Shown here one piece after another: positions 1-19,346 of a stretch of 32,000 bases of DNA. Below the pieces are notes generated by a model. The model did no database searches and was not told the origin of the DNA. It saw only the letters and a list, made by a program, of their open reading frames with translations. The stretch's first letter is position 1. Every line of letters starts with the position of its first letter. The position numbers were made by a program, and so were the translations under genes. This stretch comes from Oscillospiraceae bacterium (lineage in GTDB: Bacteria > Bacillota > Clostridia > Oscillospirales > Oscillospiraceae). The stretch spans positions 1-32,000 of the forward strand of contig JAJBUU010000004.1 of NCBI GenBank assembly GCA_020860205.1, written 5' to 3'.

Positions 1-1805
1 TACTTCACACAACTTAGAGCAAATTTCAAAAAAGTCTTGACAAAGCGTTCCCCGAAGGGACAGGCTACCGGGCGCGGACGAGATTTTCAAAGTTCTTCAA
101 TCTGCCGGAATTGATGGTCATGTTCAAAGAGGTTGCCGATATTAAAACCTCCGATCAGCTCAATCTGCCTGCCCCTACGCCCATCTATCACAACGAAGTG
201 GCGCAGCCTACCGCAATCCAGCAGGAGATGGTGCAGCAGCTCTCCGAACGAGCCTCACTGGTACACGCCGGACGAGTAGACGCCAGCGCAGATAATATGT
301 TGAAGATCACCAGCGATGGCCGCAAGCTGGGACTTGACCAGCGGGTGATCAACCCCAACCTGCCCGACGACCCGAACAGCAAAGTCAATTTGTGTGTCAA
401 CAACATCGTGAGGATTTGGGAGGAAGGACAGGCGAACAGGCTGACCCAGCTCGTGTTCTGCGATATATCCACACCGAAAAGCGCACCGACAAAGAAAATC
501 GCCAAAACTGTGGACAGTCCGGAGCTTCATGCGCTGGAACAGCTTACGGAGGAAGCTGAACCTGAAAAGCCCTTCTCCATTTACGATGATATTCGGGAAA
601 AGCTGGTGGCGCGGGGTATCCCACGGGAACAGGTGGCCTTTATCCACGAGGCCAACACGGAGGTGCGGAAAAAGGAGCTGTTCGCAAAGGTGCGCAGCGG
701 GCAGGTGCGCGTCCTGATGGGCAGCACCTTCAAAATGGGAGCAGGTATGAACGTACAGGACCGGCTGATTGCGCTCCATGACCTCGACTGCCCGTGGAGG
801 CCGGGCGACCTGGAGCAGCGCAGCGGACGTATTATCCGGCAGGGCAACAGAAATGAGCAGGTACACATTTACCGCTATGTCACAGAAGGAACATTTGATT
901 CGTACCTCTGGCAGACCGTAGAGAATAAGCAGAAGTTTATCTCACAGATCATGACCAGCAAAAGCCCGGTGCGCTCCTGTGAGGACATCGACGAAACGGC
1001 GCTTTCCTATGCGGAAATCAAGGCGCTGTGCGCCGGAGATGACAGAATACGGGAGAAGATGGACCTGGACGTAGACGTGTCCCGCCTGCGGCTGATGAAA
1101 GCCAACCACCAGAGCCAGCAGTACCGCCTGGAGGACGATTTGCTCAAACGCTTTCCCAAACAGGTGGAGGAAAGCAAGAGCTTCATCGCCGGATTTGAAG
1201 CGGATTTGAAAACGCTGGCAGAACACCCCTGTCCGAAGGAAGGGTTCGTTGGCATGGAGGTCAAGGGCGACTTCCTGACAGACAAGGATAACGCCGGCGC
1301 TGCACTGTTGGAAGCCTTTCAGGACGTTAAGGGCATGGAACCTGTTTCCATAGGAAGCTACCGCGGATTTTCCATGAGCCTGACCGTGGAGGATTTTGGC
1401 CGGGATTTTGTGCTGACGCTCAAGGGACAGATGAGCTGCCGTGTTGAGCTTGGCAAGGATGCCAGAGGCAACCTGACCCGAATTGACAACGCTCTGACCG
1501 GTATTCCCAAACGGCTGAAAACCGCACAGGACAGACTGGACAATCTCTATGCGCAGATGGAAAACGCCAAAGCGGAGCTGGGCAAGCCGTTTCCTCAAGA
1601 GAATGAGCTGCGGGTAAAATCCGCGCGTTTGGCGGAGTTAAATGCAGAGTTGAATATTGACGAGAAAACCTCGATGGAGCGCGTGGCGGAAGAACCTGTG
1701 CTAAAGCAGACGGGGCGTCCATCCGTGCTTGCGAAGCTCAAACAGACGTTGCCGGAATCGCATGGCTCGCCAAAGAAAGCAAAGCATCCGGAGACGGAGC
1801 GTTAA
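1..1805 (+). CDS. C-terminal part of a large SNF2/DEAD-like helicase of the conjugative-element helicase(-methylase) type. The 5' end lies outside the window and the frame is broken near nt 28-33.
   Basis: The frame-3 ORF is open from nt 18 and reads ...PEGTGYRARTRFSKFFNLPELM.... It continues into helicase C-terminal motifs: LVFCDISTPK, VLMGSTFKMGAGMNVQ, and DLDCPWRPGDLEQRSGRIIRQGN (QRxGRxxRxGN-like motif VI). There is an in-frame TAG at 15-17. Frame 1 is open over 1-108, and one extra A in the A6 run (28-33) would join YFTQLRANFKK to SLDKAFPEGTGY. Confidence 0.8.
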
Positions 1806-1816
1806 GCTCCGTCTCC
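1790..1816 (+). terminator. Hairpin spanning the helicase stop codon; a weak terminator candidate
   Basis: Perfect 11-bp stem ggagacggagc / gctccgtctcc with loop gttaa. The tail that follows (cgtatcttctg) is only partly T-rich. Confidence 0.3.
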
Positions 1817-1881
1817 CGTATCTTCTGATAAGGGCAGTATAGCACACAATTTCCGGAATTTCTACAGGGAGGAATTATATT

Positions 1882-2724
1882 TTGAGTTCTGATGCGAAAA
1901 AACTGAACGACCAGCTTTATGCAAAGATGACCGCAGAGCAGGAAAAATACCGAACATGGCTGTTGTCGCAGCCCGCAGAGGAGATTTTGAATCATGCCTG
2001 CGAATACACGATGCGCGAGGACATTTTGATGTCCGTTGAAACAAATCATCTGACCGCACAACAGGCGGCGGCGCTGCTCGCATCCCCGGATGCGCTCGCA
2101 GATTTATTTCATAAGCTGAGAGACATAGATACCGACTATATGGATACGATTCACGACTGCGTAACTGACTATGCCAATGAGCAGGCATACCGCCAGCAGA
2201 AGGAACTGCGAAACACCCCGGTCTATCGGGAAAGCGGCACTTATGCCAGCAGGCATGACGAGAAAGACGAGTACATTGCATCCTATAAAGCCAACATTGC
2301 CTGTAAGCAAACGCTGGAGCAGGCCATCAATGGAAATTACGCGGACAACCAACTGAATGTGAGTGCAGCGCTCCGGCAGGCAGCGGAGCTGTTCGGCATG
2401 GAGCGTGTGGTCTATGTGCTGGCTGTTACGGTGAGGGCAAAGGATTGGGATGGGAGAATTATGCCGGACAACAAGGCGTGGGCAAAAACGATCCCCGTTG
2501 CGGAAAATCTGGACGCATGGAGCAATGACCGCAACCTCGCTTTTGTCGTAGATCAGGCGCACACGGGGTTAATAGATATTCTGGTCAGCCATGTTCGGAA
2601 AGAGCTGATGCGGGAACAGCCCCCTGCTGAAAAGCGGCCTTCGGTGATGGACAAACTGAAAAAAGCAAGCCCCCTGGAAACAAAAGCACCCGCAGCCGAA
2701 AAGAAACCGGATTTGGAGCTGTGA
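1882..2724 (+). CDS. DUF3848/DUF3849-like conserved ICE protein of unknown function
   Basis: TTG start about 9 nt after GGGAGGA (1866-1872). Segments such as PVYRESGTYASRHDEKDEYIASYKANIACKQ and VYVLAVTVRAKDWDGRIMPDNKAWAKTIPV match, from memory, DUF3849-type proteins encoded beside helicase and relaxase genes in Clostridia ICEs. Confidence 0.65.
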   Translation: MSSDAKKLNDQLYAKMTAEQEKYRTWLLSQPAEEILNHACEYTMREDILMSVETNHLTAQQAAALLASPDALADLFHKLRDIDTDYMDTIHDCVTDYANEQAYRQQKELRNTPVYRESGTYASRHDEKDEYIASYKANIACKQTLEQAINGNYADNQLNVSAALRQAAELFGMERVVYVLAVTVRAKDWDGRIMPDNKAWAKTIPVAENLDAWSNDRNLAFVVDQAHTGLIDILVSHVRKELMREQPPAEKRPSVMDKLKKASPLETKAPAAEKKPDLEL

Positions 2725-2725
2725 A

Positions 2726-3064
2726 ATGACCACGCGCAGCCGGAACATCAAGCTGGAGTTCTGGGTGACGGAACAGGAACGGGCTATGATCGAGGAAAAG
2801 ATGGCGCAGCTCGGTACCCGCAACATGAGCGCCTATCTCCGCAAGATGGCCATCGACGGATGTATTGTAAATCCGGATATACCGGGATTGAAAGAAATGG
2901 TGTCCCTCCTGCGGCGCTCCGGCAACAACCTGAATCAGTTCGCCCGCCGCGCCCATGAAACGGGACGCATTTATGATGCCGACATCGAGGACATAAAACA
3001 GAATCAGGAACGGCTCTGGCAGGCGGCGTCGGATATTCTGACCGCCCTTGCCAAACTGGGATAG
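2726..3064 (+). CDS. mobC: MobC-family relaxosome accessory protein (ribbon-helix-helix)
   Basis: The ATG lies 1 nt after the upstream stop. The N-terminus is RHH-like (IKLEFWVTEQERAMIEEKMAQLG) and the protein carries an LRRSGNNLNQFARRAH motif. The gene sits upstream of a relaxase. Confidence 0.8.
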   Translation: MTTRSRNIKLEFWVTEQERAMIEEKMAQLGTRNMSAYLRKMAIDGCIVNPDIPGLKEMVSLLRRSGNNLNQFARRAHETGRIYDADIEDIKQNQERLWQAASDILTALAKLG

Positions 3065-3138
3065 GCCGCATCCTTGCAAAAAAATCTGCGGAGCCGGTAT
3101 GCGGTATGCCATTCAGGACAGAATTTACGAATGATTGA

Positions 3139-3167
3139 TTGACGATTCTAAAAAGATGCTGTATACT
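3139..3167 (+). promoter_or_regulatory. Sigma-A-type promoter upstream of the HU gene
   Basis: TTGACG (3139-3144), 17-nt spacer, TATACT (3162-3167). Confidence 0.5.
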
Positions 3168-3229
3168 TGGCCTCACGTCACAGCCACCAACAGCGTATGA
3201 TTCTAAAACAAACAGAGGAACGAAAGAAT

Positions 3230-3505
3230 ATGACCAAAACTGAATTTGTGGATAAGGTTGTCGCGGAAAGCGGACTGAGCAAAAAACAGTCAGACGAAGC
3301 GGTAAAGGCCGTGCTGAAAGTTCTGACCGATGCGATGGCTGCGGGAGATAAGGTGTCCTTCCCCGGCTTCGGCAGCTTCGAGGTCAGGGAGCGCGCCGCC
3401 CGCGAGGGCAAGAACCCGCGCACCGGTGAATCGGTGCAGATCGCAGCCTGCAAGGTTCCCGCGTTCAAGGCTGGCAAGTCCCTGAAGGACGCCGTGAACG
3501 GTTAA
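3230..3505 (+). CDS. hup: HU-family DNA-binding protein (91 aa)
   Basis: MTKTEFVDKV...FPGFGSFEVRERAAREGKNPRTGESVQIAACKVPAFKAGKSLKDAV is a canonical HU/IHF signature. GAGGAA lies about 10 nt upstream of ATG 3230. The ORF-track start at 3167 is an unlikely extension. Confidence 0.9.
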   Translation: MTKTEFVDKVVAESGLSKKQSDEAVKAVLKVLTDAMAAGDKVSFPGFGSFEVRERAAREGKNPRTGESVQIAACKVPAFKAGKSLKDAVNG

Positions 3506-3530
3506 ACAAGTTTATAGCATTTATGTCTGA

Positions 3531-3565
3531 GGCGGTCACACATTGGTGGCCGCCCTATTCTTTAT
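3531..3565 (+). terminator. Rho-independent terminator after the HU gene
   Basis: 9-bp stem ggcggtcac / gtggccgcc (one G-U pair), loop acattg, then ctattctttat. Confidence 0.55.
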
Positions 3566-3599
3566 CCGGGAGGGATGCATCATTGCCACCACCTGCATC

Positions 3600-4985
3600 A
3601 TGCCGCTGCACATAGGCCGTGGTCGGAGCGTCGGAAAGGCAATTCAAAGTATTCTGGACTATGTGGAGAACACGGAAAAGACTGACCACGGCAGACTCAT
3701 CACCTGCTATGGCTGCAACTGCCAGATTGCCGATGCTGAGTTTCTCTTTTCCAAACAACAATACAAGCGCCTGACCGGACGGGAGCAGAAAAATGATGTT
3801 ATCGCCTACCACTTCCGGCAGTCGTTCCGCCCCGGCGAGGTCATGCCGGAGGAGGCCAACCGCATCGGCGTGGAGTTTGCCGAACGTTTCCTCAAGGGCA
3901 ACAATGCCTTTATTGTCTGCACCCACATTGACCGGGCGCACATTCACAATCATGTGATTTGGAACTCTATCACGCTGGACTGCACCCGGAAATTCCGCAA
4001 TTTTTGGGGCAGCACAAAAGCCGTTCGGGAACTGAGCGACCTCATCTGTCTGGAGCATCACCTGTCCATCGTGGAAAATCCCCAGCGGCGGGGGAGAAGC
4101 TACAACAAGTGGCTGGGTGACAAAGCAGAGCCTTGCCACCGCGACATATTGCGCGCCGCTATTGACGCCGCTTTGGAGAAAAAGCCCGCAGACTTCAACG
4201 CGCTTTTGGAGCTGCTGCGGGAGAACGGCATCACGGTCACGCGCAGAGGAAAATCCATCTCTCTCTGCGCACCGGGATGGAAAGGCGCGGCGTGCCTGGA
4301 TTCACTCAGGGATGGCTACACTGAGGCCGATTTGACCGCCGTGATTCTCGGCGGGAAAACACATACTCCGCGCAAGCAGCCTGCCTCCGTTCCACCGTCA
4401 AAGGCCAGTCTGCTCATCGACATCCAGGCGAAGCTGAACGAGGGAAAGGGCGCTGGTTATGAACGGTGGGCGAAGGTTTTTAACCTCAAACAGATGGCGC
4501 AGACGATGAATTATCTGCGGGAACACGATGGGTTGGACTACGACGGACTTGTGCAGCGGGCCGACGCCGCCAGTATGCGGTTCAATGAGCTGTCTGCGCA
4601 AATCAAGGCGGCGGAAACCCGTATGGCAGAAATCTCTGTTCTCAAAACGCAGCTCATCAACTATGCCAGGACCCGCAAGGTCTTTGAGGAATACAAGGCG
4701 TCGCGTTACTCAAAAAAATATTTTGCAGAGCATGAGGGCGACATCATTCTCCATCGTGCCGCAAAGAAAACCTTTAACGAGATGGGACTGAAAAAGCTGC
4801 CTGCTGTCAAGAGTCTGCAAACGGAGTATGCCGCCCTGATCTCTGAGAAAAAAGCGGCCTACGCCGAATACCGCGAGGCGCGGGAGGAAATGAAGCGGCT
4901 GCTCGTCTATCGTGCGAACGCAGAGCAAATTCTTGGTATCGGCACCTGCGAGACAGAAAAGAAAAAGGAGCGCGAACAACGATGA
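3600..4985 (+). CDS. MobA/VirD2-family relaxase (mobilization nuclease)
   Basis: Histidine-triad region HIDRAHIHNHVIWN, an N-terminal ...MPLHIGRGRS... segment, and a C-terminal coiled-coil-like tail. ATG 3600 is used here. An ATT codon at 3582, 7 nt after GGGAGGG (3568-3574), would give MATTCIMPLH, which resembles the N-termini of homologues as I remember them. The ORF-track TTG at 3543 lies inside the hup terminator. Confidence 0.85.
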   Translation: MPLHIGRGRSVGKAIQSILDYVENTEKTDHGRLITCYGCNCQIADAEFLFSKQQYKRLTGREQKNDVIAYHFRQSFRPGEVMPEEANRIGVEFAERFLKGNNAFIVCTHIDRAHIHNHVIWNSITLDCTRKFRNFWGSTKAVRELSDLICLEHHLSIVENPQRRGRSYNKWLGDKAEPCHRDILRAAIDAALEKKPADFNALLELLRENGITVTRRGKSISLCAPGWKGAACLDSLRDGYTEADLTAVILGGKTHTPRKQPASVPPSKASLLIDIQAKLNEGKGAGYERWAKVFNLKQMAQTMNYLREHDGLDYDGLVQRADAASMRFNELSAQIKAAETRMAEISVLKTQLINYARTRKVFEEYKASRYSKKYFAEHEGDIILHRAAKKTFNEMGLKKLPAVKSLQTEYAALISEKKAAYAEYREAREEMKRLLVYRANAEQILGIGTCETEKKKEREQR

Positions 4986-5153: not shown

Positions 5154-6044
5154 TCAGGAGTTTGCTAAACGCTCCACCTCGTCCAGCGGGATGCCCGTCA
5201 GTGCAGAAATATCTGCAACGCTTACCTTTTTGAGCATATTCTTAACCAGTTCAGCTCGTGCTTCCTGTTTGCCCTCTTGGAAGCCCTCCTGGAACTTCTC
5301 TTGGTAACCCTCTTGATAGCCCTCTTGGAACTTCTCTTTAGCGACATTGTAAAGTTCAATGTCCCATACCTGCCGTTGGTCAAACAGCGTTGTCATGATG
5401 TCAACGACCTCCTTTCGCCGACTTTCCAGGAACGGTTTTAGGATTCCCCGTTCCAGACAAATTCTTAGCGTTTCATCCATTGCTTTCTGGGTTCGTCCAT
5501 ACTCTTTCACCTGTCTGTCAAATATCTGGCTGAACTCGATGTACTGGTCGAGAATATCGCCAGAACCATCGTCACGCAGGACTTTCACGTTTACCTCAAC
5601 GTCTCCAGCTCCATCGTAGAGGTCAGACAGGCAAAGCGTGTCAGGTACATTTTTCTTCTCTCCAGTATAGACGACATAAGTATAGACGACATAAAGCTCC
5701 GGCCGTGGAATTGATACCCGCTTCTCACGATACAGCGAGAGCTTGTGGTCCTCCACATATTCCTTGTAGGTGGAGGCCAGATACATCAGCATCCGAAGCG
5801 GAATATTCTCCGAAAACGTGGATTGTGCTTCGACCAGAAAAATAAGTCTGTCACGAACCTGAATGCCAATGTCGTTGTGCTGGCCAATGACCAGCACATT
5901 CTCCAGCGTTACCAACTTGAAATCCTCATCCGTCACTTTGGTATCTTCTGGATGGAGCTGAAGGTAAAGCGCCCTCGTGTACTCCGGCTGCTTAAACAAA
6001 AATGTGAAAAGACTGTCTTTTATATCTCGTTTGGGTGTTGGCAT
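5154..6044 (-). CDS. Rpn/YhgA-like PD-(D/E)XK nuclease (putative recombination-promoting nuclease/transposase family), copy A
   Basis: ATG 6044 is preceded by GAAGGAGGG. The protein reads MPTPKRDIKDSLFTFLFKQPEYT...DRLIFLVEAQS, a D...ExQ nuclease core. The C-terminus has a (QEGY/F)-type repeat and an HTH-like tail, VSVADISALTGIPLDEVERL. The ORF-track extension to 6179 runs through the promoter. Confidence 0.7.
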   Translation of the reverse strand: MPTPKRDIKDSLFTFLFKQPEYTRALYLQLHPEDTKVTDEDFKLVTLENVLVIGQHNDIGIQVRDRLIFLVEAQSTFSENIPLRMLMYLASTYKEYVEDHKLSLYREKRVSIPRPELYVVYTYVVYTGEKKNVPDTLCLSDLYDGAGDVEVNVKVLRDDGSGDILDQYIEFSQIFDRQVKEYGRTQKAMDETLRICLERGILKPFLESRRKEVVDIMTTLFDQRQVWDIELYNVAKEKFQEGYQEGYQEKFQEGFQEGKQEARAELVKNMLKKVSVADISALTGIPLDEVERLANS

Positions 6045-6069
6045 GGATCGCCCTCCTTCATCTGTTCCT

Positions 6070-6199: not shown

Positions 6200-6508
6200 T
6201 TGAAACGAATTTTTATCTTTATCTTATCCTTATCTTTCATATTCTCCTTTATTCTGACAGCCGGTGCTGCCGAGACTGACACGCTTACCATGACAGCGAC
6301 CAGGCGGCTCACCTGCGAGGGTTACACGCTGGGCGACCTTGCGGCGGCGCGTCTGGCCGTCTATGGAATCACTTCATCCACTCGTGTTTCGCTGGTTCTG
6401 TCGTTAGCCCCTTTGAAGTTAGTCAGGTCTGTGCCACCCTGCCGCCTCCTATTGTACATGACGACTGTGCGCAGAATATTATTATCCCGAAAGTTAGTGG
6501 GCGATTGA
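6200..6508 (+). pseudogene. Truncated duplicate of the 5' end (signal peptide plus about 57 aa) of the SLH/transglutaminase-like gene at 7942
   Basis: MKRIFIFILSLSFIFSFILTAGAAETDTLTMTATRRLTCEGYTLGDLAAARLAVYGI parallels residues 1-57 of the 522-aa protein. Homology stops near 6368, and the ORF then runs into unrelated sequence. Confidence 0.75.
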
Positions 6509-6670: not shown

Positions 6671-6881
6671 TCAGGAGTTTGCCAGACGCTCCACCTCGTC
6701 CTGCGGAATGTCCGTCAGTGTGGAAATATCTGCAAGGCTTACCTTTTTGAGCATAGTTCAGCTCGTGCATCCTGCTTGCTTTCTTGGAAGCCCTCCTGGA
6801 ACTTCTCTTTAGCAACATTGTAAAGCTCAATGTCCCATACCTGCCGTTGGTCAAACAGTGTTACCATGATGTCAAGCCTCC
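6671..6881 (-). pseudogene. 3'-only fragment of a third Rpn-like gene copy
   Basis: Aligns with the last ~210 nt of copies A and B. It also shares the 44-nt downstream flank (6629-6670 versus 5110-5153). A 10-nt deletion relative to the full copies (ttcttaacca missing near 6753) shifts the frame. Homology ends just upstream of a retained GGAGG (6881-6877) and ATG (6867). Confidence 0.75.
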
Positions 6882-6886
6882 ATGGA

Positions 6887-7786
6887 TCAGGAGTTTGCCA
6901 GACGCTCCACCTCATCCTGCGGAATGCCCGTCAGTGCAGAAATATCTGCAACGCTTACCTTTTTAAGCATATTCTTAACCAGTTCAGCTCGTTTTTCCTG
7001 CTTGCTTTCCTGCAAGCCCTCCTGGAAGCCCTCACGGAAGCCCTCCTGAAAACCCTCTTGGTAACCCTCCTGGTAGCCCTCTTGGAACTTCTCTTTAGCG
7101 ACATTGTAAAGCTCAATGTCCCATACCTGCCGTTGGTCAAACAGCGTTGTCATGATGTCAACGACCTCCTTTCGCCGACTTTCCAGGAACGGTTTTAGGA
7201 TTCCCCGTTCCAGACAAATTCTTAGCGTTTCATCCATTGCTTTCTGGGTTCGTCCATACTCTTTCACCTGTCTGTCAAATATCTGGCTGAACTCGATGTA
7301 CTGGTCGAGAATATCGCCAGAACCATCGTCACGCAGGACTTTCACGTTTACCTCAACGTCTCCATCTCCATTGTAGAGGTCAGACAGGCAAAGCGTGTCA
7401 GGTATATTTTTCTTCTCTCCAGTGTAGACAACATAAAGCTCCGGGCGTGGAATTGATACACGCCTCTCACGATACAGCGAGAGCTTGTGATCCTCCACAT
7501 ATTCCTTGTAGGTGGAGGCCAGATACATCAGCATCCGAAGCGGAATATTCTCCGAAAACGTGGATTGTGCTTCGACCAGAAAAATAAGTCTGTCACGAAC
7601 CTGAATGCCAATGTCGTTGTGCTGGCCAATGACCAGCACATTCTCCAGCGTTACCAACTTGAAATCCTCATCCGTCACTTTGGTATCTTCTGGATGGAGC
7701 TGAAGGTAAAGCGCCCTCGTGTACTCCGGCTGCTTAAACAAAAATGTGAAAAGACTGTCTTTTATATCTCGTTTGGGTGTTGGCAT
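6887..7786 (-). CDS. Rpn/YhgA-like PD-(D/E)XK nuclease, copy B
   Basis: Near-identical paralogue of 5154-6044. ATG 7786 has the same GAAGGAGGG SD. It differs from copy A by a few substitutions, by lacking the 15-nt duplication, and by having a longer (QEGx) repeat. Confidence 0.7.
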   Translation of the reverse strand: MPTPKRDIKDSLFTFLFKQPEYTRALYLQLHPEDTKVTDEDFKLVTLENVLVIGQHNDIGIQVRDRLIFLVEAQSTFSENIPLRMLMYLASTYKEYVEDHKLSLYRERRVSIPRPELYVVYTGEKKNIPDTLCLSDLYNGDGDVEVNVKVLRDDGSGDILDQYIEFSQIFDRQVKEYGRTQKAMDETLRICLERGILKPFLESRRKEVVDIMTTLFDQRQVWDIELYNVAKEKFQEGYQEGYQEGFQEGFREGFQEGLQESKQEKRAELVKNMLKKVSVADISALTGIPQDEVERLANS

Positions 7787-7941: not shown

Positions 7942-9510
7942 TTGAAACGAATTTTTATCTTTATCTTATCCTTATCTTTCATATTCTCCTTTATTCTGAC
8001 TGCCAGCGCCGACGAGCCTGACACGCTTACCATGACGGCGGCCAGGCGGCTCACCTGCGACGGTTACACGCTGGGCGACCTTGCGGCGGCGCGTATGGCC
8101 GTCTATGGAATACTGGACGATGCGTATAAAACGCCGCAGCCGGAAACAAAATTGCCCTTATCCAGAACGGACGCAGTGGCAACTTTATACGCGGCGTTTG
8201 GAGATGACGGCAGCTGCGCTTCTCCGTTTACAGATGTTCCCGATGAATATGCCGATGCCGTTGCGTGGGCGTATGCTATGGGAATCACGTCGGGCATCTC
8301 CACCACAGAATTTGGCGTTCGGGAAATTACAGAGACCGAGTTTGTGACGATGCTGCTTCGCTATATGGGCTATAGTGATGCATTTGACTTTGAGGAAGCA
8401 ATCAGCTTTGCCACAACATTAGGCTTATCCCCGACAGGATTATCCGCTACGTTTTGTTTGGGTGATGCTGCGCTGTATCTGCAATGCAGCGCGGACACGT
8501 TTGACCTGACGCTGAACAAGGCCGGGAAATTCGGGCAAATATCGTTTCCGTATTTGATTATTCTAACACCGGCTTCACTGGAGGATGCCGAGGAGCAGCT
8601 TCAGGCTGCGGCCTGTTATCTGCCTGCCTATATTCGGGTCTATGGAGATGATCTCGCTGCGGGCGAACTGCGTGAGCTTTATAAAACCTATTGTCAGTAT
8701 CAGTACATGGCGAAGTCCGGCGCGTATGCAACAGAAGTCTGGTGGCTGGGCAAAATTTCATCCTCCTCGCAGATGTCGCCCAGCTATGAAACAGTTTCGC
8801 AGGAATCTGCGCCGGAAGCGGAGACGTATTCTGCCACGATCTCCACACTTACAGCTCAACACAGCACGGGAGAGCTGTCCTCTGCGGAGTACGTTTATCT
8901 GTTCAAGCTGGCAATCGCGGATTATCTCGGCAGTGACAGTATGATTTCCTTTGACGCGCTCCGATGGAGCGAGGAGTGGCAGCTTGCGTGTGATGCGGAC
9001 GATGCGTTTACCGCATTTGCGGACGATACGATTACACAGCTCGCAGACGCGTTCTACTCTGAATGCATCAGGATCGCCGCCTCTGACAGCGATTATGATA
9101 TTGTGATGGCGGCGAAGCAGCTTATCATGCGTCGGGCAAGCTACGCCTCTCCAATTTCATATGCGAACGGGTCTGCATCGTATAGTGCAAGCGCCCATTC
9201 CGTCTTTGGCTTTTTTCAAAGCGGCGAGATAGTCTGCGATGGCTATTCCGCCGTTTTTCTGTATGTAATGCTCCGCGCGGGGATACCATGTGTCGAAGTC
9301 ACAGGCTCCACAGTCGGCGCTGACGGTCAAATAAATCATGCATGGAACAAGGTCAGGATAGACGGCGCATGGTACAACATAGATGTTTGTTGGGCCGATA
9401 CCGGATACCCCACCCGCTATGACCTGAAAAGCGACGCGGCATATAAAAACCTTTCCCATTGGGCGGAAGATTTCACAGTGGGAGCTTATGCGGCGGAGAA
9501 AAGCTATTAA
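7942..9510 (+). CDS. Secreted protein with an SLH-like domain and a C-terminal transglutaminase-like cysteine peptidase core
   Basis: TTG start 7 nt after GAGG. Signal peptide MKRIFIFILSLSFIFSFILTASA/DE. SLH-like segment FTDVPDEYADAVAWAYAMGITSGISTTEFGVREITETEFVTMLLRY. The C-terminal CDGYSAVFLYVMLRAGIPCVEVTG...INHAWNKVRIDGAWYNIDVCWAD fits a Cys-His-Asp transglutaminase-like core. Confidence 0.7.
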   Translation: MKRIFIFILSLSFIFSFILTASADEPDTLTMTAARRLTCDGYTLGDLAAARMAVYGILDDAYKTPQPETKLPLSRTDAVATLYAAFGDDGSCASPFTDVPDEYADAVAWAYAMGITSGISTTEFGVREITETEFVTMLLRYMGYSDAFDFEEAISFATTLGLSPTGLSATFCLGDAALYLQCSADTFDLTLNKAGKFGQISFPYLIILTPASLEDAEEQLQAAACYLPAYIRVYGDDLAAGELRELYKTYCQYQYMAKSGAYATEVWWLGKISSSSQMSPSYETVSQESAPEAETYSATISTLTAQHSTGELSSAEYVYLFKLAIADYLGSDSMISFDALRWSEEWQLACDADDAFTAFADDTITQLADAFYSECIRIAASDSDYDIVMAAKQLIMRRASYASPISYANGSASYSASAHSVFGFFQSGEIVCDGYSAVFLYVMLRAGIPCVEVTGSTVGADGQINHAWNKVRIDGAWYNIDVCWADTGYPTRYDLKSDAAYKNLSHWAEDFTVGAYAAEKSY

Positions 9511-9709: not shown

Positions 9710-10678
9710 ATGCAAGAACAAAAGCAGGAACAGATTCCGCAGGAAACGCTTGCGGAAGCACAGAAAAAAATAGAGGCCGTTCTGGACAATGTGGAAACGG
9801 TCATTATTGGCAAACGAACCTGTGTGGAACTGGTCGTGTTGGCATTGCTGGCGCGGGGACACGTTCTGATCGAGGACGTGCCGGGCGTTGGCAAAACGAG
9901 TCTGGTTTCCGCAGTGGCGCGGAGCCTGGACTGCGGCTTTAAGCGGATCCAGTTTACGCCGGACTTGATGCCATCCGATGTGACGGGCTTTTCTATCTAT
10001 AATCAGGGAACGGGTGCATTTGAGTTTCGCCCTGGCGCGGTCATGAGCAATTTGGTACTGGCTGATGAAATCAATCGAGCTTCTGCCAAGACGCAGGCCG
10101 CGCTGCTGGAGGCAATGGAGGAAAAGCAGGTGACGGTGGATTCCCACACCTACCCGCTGGAGGAGCCGTTTATGGTTCTGGCAACACAGAACCCGGTGGA
10201 ATCATTTGGTACTTATCCGCTGCCGGATGCACAAATTGACCGTTTTCTGCTGAAACTCTCGATGGGTTATCCCAGCATGGAGGAGGAACGACAAATCATC
10301 CACAACGGCAAGACAAGCCGGAAAAAACTTCATGCGGTGGTCAGCCGGCAAGATGTGGTGGAACTGAGCAATCTCGCGGAGCGCGTCACGGTCATCCCCG
10401 ATCTGGAGCGCTATATCGTTGAGATCGTCACGGCGACGCGCTCGCATAAAAACGTCAACCTTGGCGTATCGCCGCGCGGCAGTATTGCGCTGCTGGCCGC
10501 GTCGCGGGTGCTGGCGCTGATGCGTGGCCGGAACTATGTGCTGCCGGACGATATAAAATATCTTGCGCCATACGTTCTGGCACACCGTCTGAGCCTGAGC
10601 AGCGAGGCGCGCATGAATCACATTACGCCGAAAGATTTGATTTCGGAAATATTGGATAGCATTATCGTACCTGTGTGA
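9710..10678 (+). CDS. MoxR-family AAA+ ATPase
   Basis: Walker A VPGVGKTS, FKRIQFTPDLMPSDVTG, Walker B and sensor region VLADEINRASAKTQAALLEAMEEKQVTVD, then LATQNPVESFGTYPLPDAQIDRF. The length (322 aa) is typical for the family. Confidence 0.85.
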   Translation: MQEQKQEQIPQETLAEAQKKIEAVLDNVETVIIGKRTCVELVVLALLARGHVLIEDVPGVGKTSLVSAVARSLDCGFKRIQFTPDLMPSDVTGFSIYNQGTGAFEFRPGAVMSNLVLADEINRASAKTQAALLEAMEEKQVTVDSHTYPLEEPFMVLATQNPVESFGTYPLPDAQIDRFLLKLSMGYPSMEEERQIIHNGKTSRKKLHAVVSRQDVVELSNLAERVTVIPDLERYIVEIVTATRSHKNVNLGVSPRGSIALLAASRVLALMRGRNYVLPDDIKYLAPYVLAHRLSLSSEARMNHITPKDLISEILDSIIVPV

Positions 10679-10841
10679 AACAGGTATCACAAAACCGATA
10701 ATGCGTGAAAAAAATCCGGCATCGCAGAATTATTCATGTACAGATGCCGTTATCTATGCCTCGTCATGTGAAAGGCCAAAATCTGGCAGGCAGCATGGCG
10801 GGGCTTCTTTTATCTTATATATAATTTGAATCAGAATAAAG

Positions 10842-10890
10842 CAGGTGGTCTGCTGTACGGGGCGTACAGTGGGCCGCCTGTTATTTTTTT
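10842..10890 (+). terminator. Strong Rho-independent terminator about 165 nt downstream of the MoxR gene
   Basis: caggtggtc-tg-ctgtacg-ggg-cgtacag-tg-ggccgcctg (two G-U pairs), followed by ttattttttt. Confidence 0.65.
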
Positions 10891-11165
10891 GTTTATAGAA
10901 AACAACTGAGGAAAATCCTACACTGTCATGCATAAAATCTTTTCGCAAAGTATTCTCCTTTGTGAAAAGAAAAAATTCATAATTCGTTCTTAATTGATAT
11001 AATAAGACATTCAGGCCAAAATGTCAAGTGCTATTTTGAAAAAGATTTTTTATCCCCTATAATGAATTACGTAACGGTATATTTTCTAAATCACCAGCCA
11101 AAGAGAGGAAAACCACCCCAATAAAAAGAATAATCGCCGTCAAAATTCTGGTCAGGAGGGTAGCT

Positions 11166-11426
11166 ATGCCAAGACGTGGAGAAAACATCTACAAGCGGAA
11201 AGATGGCCGTTGGGAGGGACGTTATATCTATGGTCACCGAGCAGACGGCCGCGCAATTTACAAATCAGTTTATGGAGATTCGTATATCGAGGCACGAGAG
11301 AAATTAACACTTCGCAAATCAGAACTTGCGCAAAAGAAAACCGGTTCCTGTGCGCTGACCATAAAAGAAATCAGTATTCAGTGGCTTGCGCAAAATCGGT
11401 TCTCCGTCAAGAAATCAAGGCTATGA
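11166..11426 (+). pseudogene. N-terminal fragment (about 84 aa) of a Tn916-Int-like tyrosine integrase
   Basis: MPRRGENIYKRKDGRWEGRYIYGHRADGRAIYKSVYGDSYIEAREKL... is a typical arm-binding N-terminal integrase domain, preceded by an AGGAGGG SD. The ORF stops after ...SVKKSRL and has no core-binding or catalytic domains. Confidence 0.7.
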
Positions 11427-11595
11427 CGGCGGAAACCATAAAATTTCCGGATTGTACATCAACGATACGCCGGCAAAAAGCACCACATATTACGGCTTGT
11501 TCGGCGTTGTCGAGGATGGAACAATCAAGAATTTGACTATCAGTGGTGAAATCACGCTTGAGCCGAATGGAACAGATTATAATGGTTATGTTGGT
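11425..11595 (+). pseudogene. Fragment resembling a GLUG-motif repeat from a large surface protein, fused in frame to the recombinase remnant
   Basis: ISGLYINDTPAKSTTYYGLFGVVEDGTIKNLTISGEITLEPNGTDYNGYVGG matches the GLFG...G.I.NL...G.I...VGG pattern. It has no signal peptide, no start context and no continuation. Confidence 0.45.
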
Positions 11596-12585
11596 GGCCC
11601 TGTACTGCCGCCGCGTTGGTATTGGGCGATTCATTATGGAAGCGGCAGCTGCAACTATGCGAAGTACTGGTTATGCAGCACCGTCAAGTACATACTGAGG
11701 AGTTCCGTATATCTTGGTACTGTGACACAGAATACCACCGGCTCACGTTCCTATAAGGACAGAGCCGCAATTCATAAACCTGAGAACGAGTGGATCATAC
11801 ACGAGGAAGCGTGCGAGGCTATTATTCCGCGGAAGGTATGGGACATTGTGCAGGAGCGTGACCGGCAGGCAGCGGAAGCATCCGCAAACAATGCATCGCC
11901 TGTACAGGGCTTGTTCAGTGGGAAACTCGTCTGTGCCGACTGCGGCGCATCTCTTTATGTGAACAGAGAAAAGTATCGCCGGAAAGACGGCACCGTTAAA
12001 CAGTATGTGGCTTATATATGCGGAAATTACACAAGCTCAGGGGGTAGCGTCTGTTCGTGGCATCGAATAAACGAGTTGACCCTAAAGCAAATCGTGATGA
12101 GAGAAATTCAGGCTCATGCCAAAGCGCTCACGTTGGACGAAGCCGCTGTGCTGGACAAGCTGAGAAAGCGGACAGACACAGACAGCGCAGACCACCGGCA
12201 GACGTCCAGACGTGAAATCACAAAGCTGCGCTGCCAGATTCAGGAGCTGGAACAGAAAACCGCCCAACTCTACGAGGATAAGGTCACAGGCTCTATTTCA
12301 GCCGAGACATTTTCGTTGTTGGCGGGAAAAACCGAACAGGAACGACAGGAAAAGGCAGAGCAGCTCAGTGCGCTGGAAACCGAAGTGAGACGATACGAGC
12401 AGGATAACGCGAACATCCGGCAGTGGACTGCACTGGTCCGCAAATATCTGAATGTGCAGGAGCTTGACCGCCCCATCGTGGATGAATTGGTAGAACGTAT
12501 TGAAGTTGGAGAGGGCAGCATGATAGACGGACTGCGACAGCAAGATGTCCGCATCTATTATCGCTTTGTTGGGCTGGTGGAATAG
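11596..12585 (+). pseudogene. Large serine recombinase lacking its N-terminal resolvase catalytic domain
   Basis: Recombinase-domain segment ...YWLCSTVKYILRSSVYLGTVTQNTTGSRSYKDR...HEEACEAIIPRKVWDIVQ. Zinc-ribbon segment LVCADCGASLYVN...YICGNYTSSGGSVCSWHRI. Coiled-coil and DUF4368-like tail LYEDKVTGSISAETFSLL...IVDELVERIEVGE. No catalytic Ser domain is present upstream. Confidence 0.75.
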
Positions 12586-17258: not shown

Positions 17259-17305
17259 ACTCCGGGGGACACGGCGCCAAGCGCGCCGTGTCCCCCAAAA
17301 TGCGT

Positions 17306-17337
17306 GGGCGCTGCAAAAATCTTGCAGCGCCCTTTTT
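17306..17337 (+). terminator. Rho-independent terminator after the transporter gene, preceded by a second 14-bp hairpin at 17264-17296
   Basis: gggcgctgcaa-aaatc-ttgcagcgccc followed by ttttt. The upstream hairpin is gggggacacggcgc / gcgccgtgtccccc. Confidence 0.7.
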
Positions 17338-17522
17338 GCGGTTATTCGGCAGAGAATGCGGACAAGTGTGCGCATAAGGAATCACGCAAGGAGGGCACGA
17401 CCAACATGGCTGCCACGCGCCCTATATGTCACATTCACGGCTTTTCAGTGGTTTTTCGGTTTTTAGCCAAACATATAAAGGAACGAAAATTCAGCCGGGT
17501 TTATTACATTACTAAGATAAGA

Positions 17523-18107
17523 TCAACCTTTGCTCGTAAGCATCTCGGCTTTCAAATCCGAAACCTTTTTTGTTGTTATGCCGAGAAAAGAGGCGATAAA
17601 CTTCTGCTCGACCGCACAGCTGAGTCCGGGGTACGTCGAATAGAGCCATGCGATCTTTTCTTCCGGAGATTTTTGAGTCCGGATATTATTCAGCTTCGCC
17701 TGCTCTGTCAGACGCTGAATTTGCTGCGTCTGGAACCATGCGCGAAGCTCTGCGCTCCCGGCCAGCGCGGCCTGAAAAACGTCAACCGGAATTTGCAGGA
17801 CGTCGGCGGACCCGGAAACGGGTGCGATCGAGACCAGTGCAGGCTGATCCAATTCAAAGCCGCCTACAACAAAATCGCCATAGTGATAATAAAATCCGTT
17901 AAATATTTTCTTGCTTTTGCCGCTTGTGATGATGTAGCTGCTCAGAACGCCCTCGAAAAGGAAGGACACAACCGTTTGAATCTCACCCGTTTGCGCAAGG
18001 GTCGTATCCTTTCTTATCTTGCCTGGCTTTGCATTTTCTGCCAGCATATTCAAGGTGTCCTGATCCTGAATTTTCAGTGTTTCCTCAAAAAATTTTCTTG
18101 CAAACAT
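17523..18107 (-). CDS. Crp/Fnr-family transcriptional regulator
   Basis: 194 aa. The N-terminal part looks like a cNMP-binding beta-barrel. The C-terminal HTH-like segment is EQKFIASFLGITTKKVSDLKAEM. The start lies 9 nt after the stop of the upstream gene. Confidence 0.6.
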   Translation of the reverse strand: MFARKFFEETLKIQDQDTLNMLAENAKPGKIRKDTTLAQTGEIQTVVSFLFEGVLSSYIITSGKSKKIFNGFYYHYGDFVVGGFELDQPALVSIAPVSGSADVLQIPVDVFQAALAGSAELRAWFQTQQIQRLTEQAKLNNIRTQKSPEEKIAWLYSTYPGLSCAVEQKFIASFLGITTKKVSDLKAEMLTSKG

Positions 18108-18116
18108 AATTTCCCC

Positions 18117-19346
18117 TTAAACTCCTTTGTTTGAATTATTAACTAACCACCCCGACGGCACATATCTTCCATATGTCATCGCAGTGCTCGGTTTTGTGAT
18201 TAACGCTCCATCATAGACCATGCAGGATGAGGAACCGCCGTCCATGCACATGGCATTGAACGCATGGTAGCGCAGCATGATCGCCGCGCAGTCTCCTACG
18301 GTTGCGCCGATGCTGTAGCCGATTTGCCGACCGTCGATGATCAGCATAAGCGTTTTCAACGTGGAAGTTTGCCCGATGCAGGTGCGCGGCTGGATGCCAA
18401 ATGCGTTTGCATTTTCGGCTGTCGCGTCCTCGCCATTGAGGACCACGATCGGGAAAAACTGCGCCGCGTCCCGAAGCTCGTCCGTATTCAGACCGTAGCC
18501 AACGCGGAAGTAGTCATCGTAATCATAACCGCCGATTTGAAAATAGCCGTCGCTGGACGCGGGGTTGTATATCGTGCTTTCGGAAAGCAACAGACCTTCG
18601 GGGCTGTCGCCATAGCTCGTACCGTCCGGGTCGTAGAAGCCGTTGGCGTTGATCCCCAAAATCGCACCGTAGCTATCGCACATCTCTTTGATGGTTTCTC
18701 CTCTTTGGGAAAGCGAGCTTTTCCCAAGAAAAACCTGTGCGCTGTCGTTTACAATCGCAAGCGTGCCGACATAATTATCCCCATAAATTTTGGTGATCAG
18801 AATACCGTTGGGAATATCGATTCCCCAGACTGCATCGCCGGAAGCAGTCAAAATACCCGTATCCTCTATGTCTTTTGCCTGAAACCCGCAAAAGTCAGAA
18901 TATTCGGCAGGCAGGAAATCGTCCGGTACGGTTTCCATATCGATTTCCGCAAACATCCTTGCCAGCGCGTCCATCGGAACAGGGTCGCCGCGCGTTTCTG
19001 TTTCCTGTGTGTACGCGGTTTCCGTCTCAATTTCCGGCAGTTCGCTTTGCGCCACCTGATTATTTTCCAAAAACTCGTTTTGCCGGTTCATGACAGCATC
19101 GATTACACTTGCAGGGATGAACGCCGTTGCAAGCCATTGATGGGTCATTGTTGTCATGGCTGTTTCGATGTATATCTCACGCCATTTTTTCACGAACGGG
19201 ATATTTGAGAAAACCGCTGCGCCCCAAAGACCCACAAGCAGCGCAAGAACCAAAATACAGCTTGCGACGATGCGCCATGCGGTGGATTTTTTTGTGTGCT
19301 TGCTGTTTTTGCAGTCTCCCGATAATTTCAAAGAGTTCCGTTCCAC
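18117..19346 (-). CDS. Membrane-anchored phosphodiester glycosidase (NAGPA/DUF2233-like) family protein
   Basis: GTG start 8 nt after GAGGAA. N-terminal TM helix AWRIVASCILVLALLVGLWGAAVF. The C-terminal LMLIIDGRQIGYSIGATVGDCAAIMLRYHAFNAMCMDGGSSSCMVYDG resembles the DGR...NLDGGGS pattern of this family. Confidence 0.65.
   Translation of the reverse strand: MERNSLKLSGDCKNSKHTKKSTAWRIVASCILVLALLVGLWGAAVFSNIPFVKKWREIYIETAMTTMTHQWLATAFIPASVIDAVMNRQNEFLENNQVAQSELPEIETETAYTQETETRGDPVPMDALARMFAEIDMETVPDDFLPAEYSDFCGFQAKDIEDTGILTASGDAVWGIDIPNGILITKIYGDNYVGTLAIVNDSAQVFLGKSSLSQRGETIKEMCDSYGAILGINANGFYDPDGTSYGDSPEGLLLSESTIYNPASSDGYFQIGGYDYDDYFRVGYGLNTDELRDAAQFFPIVVLNGEDATAENANAFGIQPRTCIGQTSTLKTLMLIIDGRQIGYSIGATVGDCAAIMLRYHAFNAMCMDGGSSSCMVYDGALITKPSTAMTYGRYVPSGWLVNNSNKGV

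Follow-up and report, generated by a model that had tools for sequence, protein, structure and literature searches.

A 32,000-nt stretch of a gut Oscillospiraceae contig (JAJBUU010000004.1, positions 1 to 32,000; hereafter the window) carries two closely related long genes on its minus strand. They resemble the genes for Rpn nucleases, and within each gene a second Shine-Dalgarno (SD) sequence and ATG lie in the same reading frame. Copy A, the RpnL-like gene at 5154..6044, encodes 296 amino acids (aa) and copy B, at 6887..7786, encodes 299 aa, the two being spaced 1.74 kb apart. Copy A starts at ATG 6044-6042 with the SD AAGGAGG at 6052..6058, 7 nt ahead, and in copy B AAGGAGG at 7800-7794 serves the ATG at 7786. 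An open reading frame (ORF) lister had proposed GTG-started ORFs of 341 and 344 aa. We rejected these as real genes and took ATG 6044 and ATG 7786 as the true starts, because AAGGAGG lies 7 nt upstream and the homologues begin there. A protein from an Oscillospiraceae metagenome-assembled genome at NCBI, LIO60_00240, is identical to copy A (P0001 in our set) and is named only 'hypothetical protein'. The GC content of the two copies is 0.48 as compared to 0.55 for the window. Copies A and B share 98-100% identity across most of their first 700 nt and differ mainly in the tail. The exception outside the tail is a 15-nt insertion patch in copy A, a perfect tandem duplication at 5664..5694 (minus strand) that adds YVVYT to a predicted core beta-strand. 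It follows an invariant P-E-L and is found only in copy A, being absent from copy B and from 22 of 22 aligned homologues.

Both copies spell Lys-Glu-Val as AAG GAG GTC, giving AAGGAGGT at 5407..5414 in copy A (GGAGG core 5412-5408) and at 7164..7171 in copy B (core 7169-7165), in the direction of the genes on the minus strand. In each copy AAGGAGGT is followed by 10 nt and then an in-frame ATG, a spacing of 11 nt when counted from the GGAGG core. Initiation at these ATGs would yield predicted intragenic small proteins, an RpnS-like one of 80 aa from copy A (5154..5396, ATG 5396-5394) and one of 88 aa from copy B (6887..7153, ATG 7153-7151). A first-pass annotation, made by reading the letters, had reported this in-frame internal SD and ATG in both copies, and all its coordinates and both peptide lengths proved exact. 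Across the window AAGGAGG-N4-12-ATG was found five times where 0.54 would be expected, and none of 100 shuffles reached five. Four of them are the main and internal starts of copies A and B. The fifth, at 17388-17408 on the plus strand, is probably a gene start as well: its ATG at 17406 is in frame with an ORF listed as 17304-18134 with a GTG start, and the gene probably begins at 17406 instead. Pairing with the 16S rRNA tail (anti-SD) has a predicted energy of -13.1 kcal/mol for the internal SD and -12.6 kcal/mol for the main one. Both copies can also form an 8-bp RNA hairpin, GUCGGCGA / UCGUUGAC, with AAGGAGG in its 7-nt loop (5397-5422, minus strand; 7154-7179). An SD-displaying hairpin was dropped as a candidate feature, as it is not kept in 79 homologues and its fold is no better than that of shuffles (z 0.16).

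A protein search returned 1,282 relatives (over 1,200 proteins at 90% clustering), almost all of them unnamed or 'hypothetical' where a source names them. As Lys206, Glu207, Val208, Ile211, and Met212 are invariant in an alignment of 24 sequences, the peptide alone cannot decide whether the internal SD is under selection. To find homologous loci in GTDB genomes we matched peptide patterns that lie far from the SD site, so the retrieval was not biased towards it; the codons of the 80 loci obtained were threaded onto the protein alignment. The resulting 81 genes span 38-100% protein identity. Lys206 is encoded by AAG in 51 of 52 genes, as compared to 28.4 expected from each gene's own usage, and Glu207 by GAG in 76 of 81 (36.7 expected). 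At 15 other conserved Lys and Glu columns of the same alignment, which share their phylogeny with the test columns, the pooled counts are 158:152 for AAG:AAA and 304:323 for GAG:GAA. The normalised synonymous entropies of Lys206 (0.14) and Glu207 (0.33) are the lowest two among the 121 conserved columns with a synonymous choice (mean 0.89, standard deviation 0.13), and the neighbouring codons are not suppressed.

The core is retained even when the peptide changes. Where the Lys is replaced, GGAGG is still present (AGG, ATG, GAG, GCG, or ACG followed by GAG GT), and in one Lachnospiraceae clade the core sits one codon further upstream (GAA GGA GAG). Of 81 genes, 80 have ATG at the internal Met position, and in 68 of 79 the SD and the ATG are 11 nt apart. 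A homologue from Flavonifractor plautii, a cultured relative, is 58% identical (P0112) and has the KEVVDIM site too. The median anti-SD duplex at the site is -13.1 kcal/mol, against -3.1 kcal/mol at 459 other in-frame ATGs of the same genes; a duplex of -8 kcal/mol or lower is predicted in 95% of cases at the site and 5% elsewhere. Codon choice is thus clearly positive for selection acting on the internal SD in its own right, beyond what the peptide demands, and the selection is ongoing, since the bias holds down to about 40% protein identity. Conservation of this kind had been set as a check by the first-pass annotation, which had also named synonymous changes that destroy the SD in homologues as evidence against an internal start; such changes were not observed. 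From these data, internal initiation very probably takes place.

The few homologues without a canonical SD (L053, L058, and L064) come from bins labelled Proteobacteria, Myxococcota, and Fretibacterium. They have an additional Met three codons upstream (I/V-M-D/N-I-M), and in L064 an upstream AGGGAGGTGG would serve this earlier ATG. Judging from these sequences, the start may have shifted in this clade.

The N-terminal domain of the long proteins was compared with known families. Copy A has sub-threshold matches to TIGR01784, PF04754, and PF12784, and the family aligns to E. coli RpnA in hhalign with an E value of 2.4e-4 over 140 columns, at a probability of just 44%. TIGR01784 matches 21 of 24 relatives at E<=0.01, the best at 2.9e-9. 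Residues D11, D63, E82, Q84, and R94 of RpnA align to the invariant D10, D58, E72, Q74, and R84 of the family; in RpnA their mutation alters or abolishes the in vivo phenotypes (PMC5350276). An AlphaFold2 (AF2) model of the full-length protein, with a predicted local distance difference test (pLDDT) score of 78.6, has an alpha/beta core at residues 1-155, three helices, a long helix at 205-273, and two short helices, the internal Met being at the beginning of the long helix. A phmmer search of the long protein against PDB sequences gave no match. By these profile and motif comparisons, the N-terminal domain is a predicted PD-(D/E)XK nuclease whose homology to Rpn is real but distant. The N-terminal domains of the family form a separate unnamed clade of over 1,200 proteins at 90% clustering.

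The tail, which is also the predicted small protein, has Rpn relatives of its own. The 80-aa protein matches positions 214-272 of the TIGR01784 profile (E 1.9e-6). A profile of 21 tails has as its best PDB match 7TH0, E. coli RpnA-S (E 0.0026), and in BLASTP the small protein is 39% identical to RpnA-S over 36 aa. Together with the hhalign and TIGR01784 results for the long protein, this match agrees with the distant Rpn family membership proposed in the first-pass annotation. When the copy B small protein is modelled alone by AF2 (pLDDT 65), helices are predicted at 4-63, 68-75, and 79-87. The same tail, with (x-Q/E-E-G)n and ...DISxLTGLP... sequences, is found in bona fide PF12784 proteins, P0162 among them.

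The repeats in the tail are encoded by arrays of 12-nt tandem units on the minus strand. The array in copy A (5271..5330) has 5 copies at the DNA level and encodes 5+1 four-aa units, FQEG YQEG YQEK FQEG FQEG + KQEA. The array in copy B (7008..7087) has 6.7 copies and encodes 7+1 units, two above copy A. The repeats start at residue 23 of the small protein, slightly past the 8-20 residues given for known RpnS proteins (PMC10400941). Repeat number is hypervariable in the family: a single cluster of N-terminal domains that are at least 95% identical has 20 distinct tails of 61 to 77 aa, and within each tail type the lengths step by 4. The tails in this cluster (P0007-P0064) are of two types unrelated to each other, ...LTGISQEEIERL... 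and ...FAAHRFEDADAATTDEAKRDKLYKEFGIQ, with the breakpoint after a conserved MTTLFDQ..ELxN leader. The placement of the breakpoint suggests that these tails were exchanged by recombination.

The small protein is also encoded on its own. Directly after the copy B stop lies a stand-alone small-protein cassette, fragment C (6671..6881, minus strand), with GGAGG at 6881-6877, a 9-nt spacer, ATG at 6867-6865, and 2+1 repeat units. Fragment C is frameshifted by a 10-nt deletion relative to five other cassettes, leaving a 42-aa ORF that ends at 6739. It is a degenerate counterpart of the RpnSs genes, the stand-alone small-protein genes of Rpn loci. Intact versions are found in a sister element, L082, in which the long gene is 88% identical and again has the relaxase and HU genes as neighbours. 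Two of them lie behind this long gene, at 1097-1291 (64 aa) and 1312-1554 (80 aa). The two cassettes have about 1+1 and 5+1 repeat units and the long gene 2+1. A common junction of about 20 nt, TGATTCATGGGGG(G)CTTGACATC, joins the long gene and the two cassettes, and each cassette opens at the internal-start Met behind this junction. Further stand-alone copies are found in L004, L017, L029, and L063, and an exhaustive search with the 80-aa protein returned many representatives of 60-90 aa that open with M(T/V)xLFDQ. Some of these may be gene-calling artefacts on truncated contigs, but this does not apply to the genes of L082. In the stand-alone cassettes, where the spacer is under no coding constraint, it measures 9 nt as compared to 11 nt at the internal site. 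Based on the intact stand-alone ORFs, the internal-start Met is predicted to serve elsewhere as a true N-terminus.

The Rpn nucleases of E. coli are toxic and are blocked by a small C-terminal protein whose translation begins within the gene (Zhong et al. 2023, PMC10400941). Protection from phage was shown for one Rpn system, and an rpn gene of Clostridioides difficile also makes a small protein (PMC10400941). RpnS forms a long dimerisation helix with four-aa repeats, each of one hydrophobic residue and three that are charged or Gly; their number varies and determines which partners are cognate (PMC10400941 and its commentary). Rpn arrays arise by tandem duplication, with additional RpnSs genes downstream (PMC10400941). 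The first-pass annotation had described toxic Rpn nucleases in E. coli, with a role in phage defence and an inhibitor translated from an internal start, in agreement with this paper. A literature search for later Rpn work gave only the 2023 paper and its commentary.

By analogy with these systems, we propose the following for copies A and B. Translation from the main start would give a protein of about 300 aa with an N-terminal PD-(D/E)XK DNA nuclease and a C-terminal tail composed of one long helix with four-aa repeats and two short helix-turn-helix (HTH)-like helices. Ribosomes would also bind the internal AAGGAGGT and initiate at the Met 11 nt downstream, producing the tail alone (80 or 88 aa). 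As with E. coli RpnS, the repeat helix would then let the free tail bind its identical counterpart in the long protein, and the nuclease would be kept off. If pairing depends on repeat number, copy A (5+1) and copy B (7+1) would be mutually insulated. We put the probability of this complete model, an RpnL/RpnS-type toxin with an intragenic antitoxin, at about 0.7. Production of the small protein, toxicity of the long one, neutralisation, specificity by repeat number, and anti-phage function are what we infer from the likeness to Rpn. The toxin/intragenic-antitoxin logic suggested in the first-pass annotation is supported at the level of sequence comparison.

Several observations weigh against the model. 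The domain scores all fall below the curated cut-offs, at 16.8 bits for PF04754 (Transposase_31; cut-off 21, E 0.005), 15.8 bits for PF12784 (PDDEXK_2; cut-off 27.4, E 0.012), and 32.3 bits for TIGR01784 (cut-off 52.1, E 9e-8), such a cut-off being an operational criterion and not a biological one. Foldseek searches of PDB with the full-length model gave nothing at E<=0.001 and only scattered PD-(D/E)XK nucleases. With the small-protein model they again gave nothing at E<=0.001, the matches being generic HTH domains without 7TH0 among them. The tails do not match PF14261 (DUF4351), the nearest being one of 21 at E 0.26, and PADLOC returned no matching defence model. Copy A may be an inactive toxin on account of the five-aa insertion, which the model places in the nuclease core. 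The internal spacing of 11 nt exceeds that of the main starts in copies A and B and their homologues, where it is about 7-8 nt. Internal initiation may for this reason be inefficient, and the spacing may keep the short protein scarce relative to the long one. A scan of the coding strand upstream of the internal start, a crude one, found no sigma-70-like promoter. Synonymous variation is not suppressed upstream of the SD either, though a promoter need not be conserved in sequence. On this evidence the separate short transcript of E. coli appears to have no visible counterpart here.

The evidence for internal initiation would be shared by a different account of the product, in which the small protein is made but acts as a required subunit or specificity partner of the nuclease, comparable to Cas11d made inside cas10d, or as an HTH DNA-binding regulator of the locus. 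The Cas10d/Cas11d case is cited in PMC10400941, the tail resembles generic HTH domains (the IstA N-terminus, Aca11, HipB, XRE, and HTH Pfam families), and an inhibitor and an activator cannot be told apart by their sequence. We nevertheless consider this account improbable, as all the Rpn systems tested (RpnA, RpnB, RpnC, and RpnP2; PMC10400941) have a small protein that inhibits its long partner. The tail is moreover homologous to RpnA-S, and the hypervariable repeat number suits the matching of cognate pairs.

Other accounts dispense with initiation altogether. The SD and ATG could be a by-product of a conserved Lys-Glu-Val...Met peptide under ordinary codon bias, or the disused ribosome binding site left by an ancestral fusion of a nuclease gene with a small gene. 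The protein does constrain part of the motif, K206, E207, V208, I211, and M212 being invariant, and the 11-nt spacing is longer than optimal. However, codon ratios of 51:1 and 76:5 at these two positions, as compared to about 1:1 at all other conserved Lys and Glu columns, and retention of the core through amino-acid replacements and shifts are not what a peptide by-product would give. The persistence of the pattern to about 40% protein identity argues for continuing selection, leaving this explanation very unlikely. A role in elongation appears, if anything, a shade less probable again: the SD-like sequence would pause ribosomes between the nuclease domain and the tail, aiding folding or regulation, with no initiation. 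The position of the motif at the domain boundary, where helix 205-273 begins in the AF2 model, would suit such a pause, yet pausing leaves unexplained both an invariant ATG at a fixed distance and the stand-alone cassettes that open at that Met with a purine-rich SD of their own. SD-induced pausing of ribosomes is itself disputed.

The antitoxin model places copies A and B beside E. coli RpnA-E and RpnP2 (PMC10400941, PMC5350276, 7TH0), with which they share several features. The nuclease is of the PD-(D/E)XK type with a D...D...ExQS...R motif. In E. coli RpnA the Lys-Glu codons likewise spell an internal SD, AAGGAG, and an in-frame ATG lies just before the tail helix. Both have a tail made of a long helix with four-aa repeats and two short helices, a repeat number that differs between copies or strains, tandem duplications, extra small-protein genes downstream, and horizontal transfer. 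In contrast, identity over the nuclease core is only about 26%, and the family here falls below the curated hidden Markov model (HMM) cut-offs. The SD precedes the Met by 6 codons (11 nt) as compared to 4 codons (6 nt) in E. coli. A well-conserved leader of 22 residues (MTTLFDQxxVWEIELYN...) precedes the repeats, as compared to about 8 in RpnA-S (published range, 8-20; PMC10400941). No internal promoter was detected here by the crude scan of the coding strand. The host is also different, the genes residing on a conjugative element in a gut Oscillospiraceae.

The proteins of the PF12784/TIGR01784 group, annotated as 'Rpn family recombination-promoting nuclease/putative transposase' in Firmicutes and others, have a clearly homologous tail (TIGR01784 positions 208-272), whereas the N-terminal domain of the family here scores just E~0.01 against PF12784. 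The Rpn of C. difficile studied in PMC10400941 may be a member of this group. Like the stand-alone RpnSs genes of E. coli (ypaA/rpnESs; DUF4351, PF14261), the cassettes here place a copy of the small protein directly downstream of the long gene, where it has a separate SD and begins at the same Met. Unlike them, they do not match PF14261; the copy in the window is frameshifted, and L082 has two tandem cassettes with unequal repeat numbers.

Copies A and B are accordingly a new, diverged, and so far unannotated relative of the kind of system published in 2023, not a new kind. The concept itself is unchanged, as the 2023 paper already included a Clostridial example. What the analysis would add is that the Rpn principle of an antitoxin encoded within its toxin gene extends to a large clade, so far unannotated, of gut Oscillospiraceae, Lachnospiraceae, and their neighbours, comprising over 1,200 protein clusters and missed by current family models. 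Comparative evidence alone shows the internal ribosome binding site to be selected in its own right. Gene callers and defence-system finders should annotate two products per gene, and the codon-choice test offers a cheap screen for functional internal starts in other genes.

A more speculative role can be suggested for the downstream cassettes. Beyond being spare antitoxins, they could act as a recombination reservoir, where an exchange within the MTTLFDQ...ELYN leader would replace the tail of the long gene and the internal antitoxin together. We regard this as rather doubtful. If true, a single exchange would be enough to give the entire module a new specificity, much as in a cassette-switching system, and events of this type would have left their mark in the 20 tails, unrelated or with different repeats, that occur on near-identical nuclease domains.

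A relaxase, a serine recombinase, and other conjugation-type genes confirm the mobile-element setting given in the first-pass annotation. On the plus strand, the 5' end of the SLH/transglutaminase gene (7942-9510) recurs in truncated form at 6200..6508, which covers its first ~100 codons and matches 7942-8250. This duplicate marks a tandem duplication of about 1.74 kb that gave rise to copies A and B. In two relatives, L082 and L083, a single copy lies between the relaxase and the transglutaminase gene; the duplication is therefore a local and recent one. In the window the locus is flanked by a MobA/VirD2 relaxase gene (3543-4985) and the SLH/transglutaminase gene, beyond which are genes for a MoxR ATPase and a large serine recombinase. 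No recognisable defence genes adjoin the two copies, the surrounding genes being of conjugation and recombination types. Genes of conjugative-element type span 111-4985 and 9710-12585, and the locus lies in an integrated conjugative element. Upstream on the relaxase side are a gene for a helicase C-domain protein, a DUF3848/DUF3849 gene, and one for an HU-like protein (3167-3505), and the large serine recombinase carries a DUF4368 domain.

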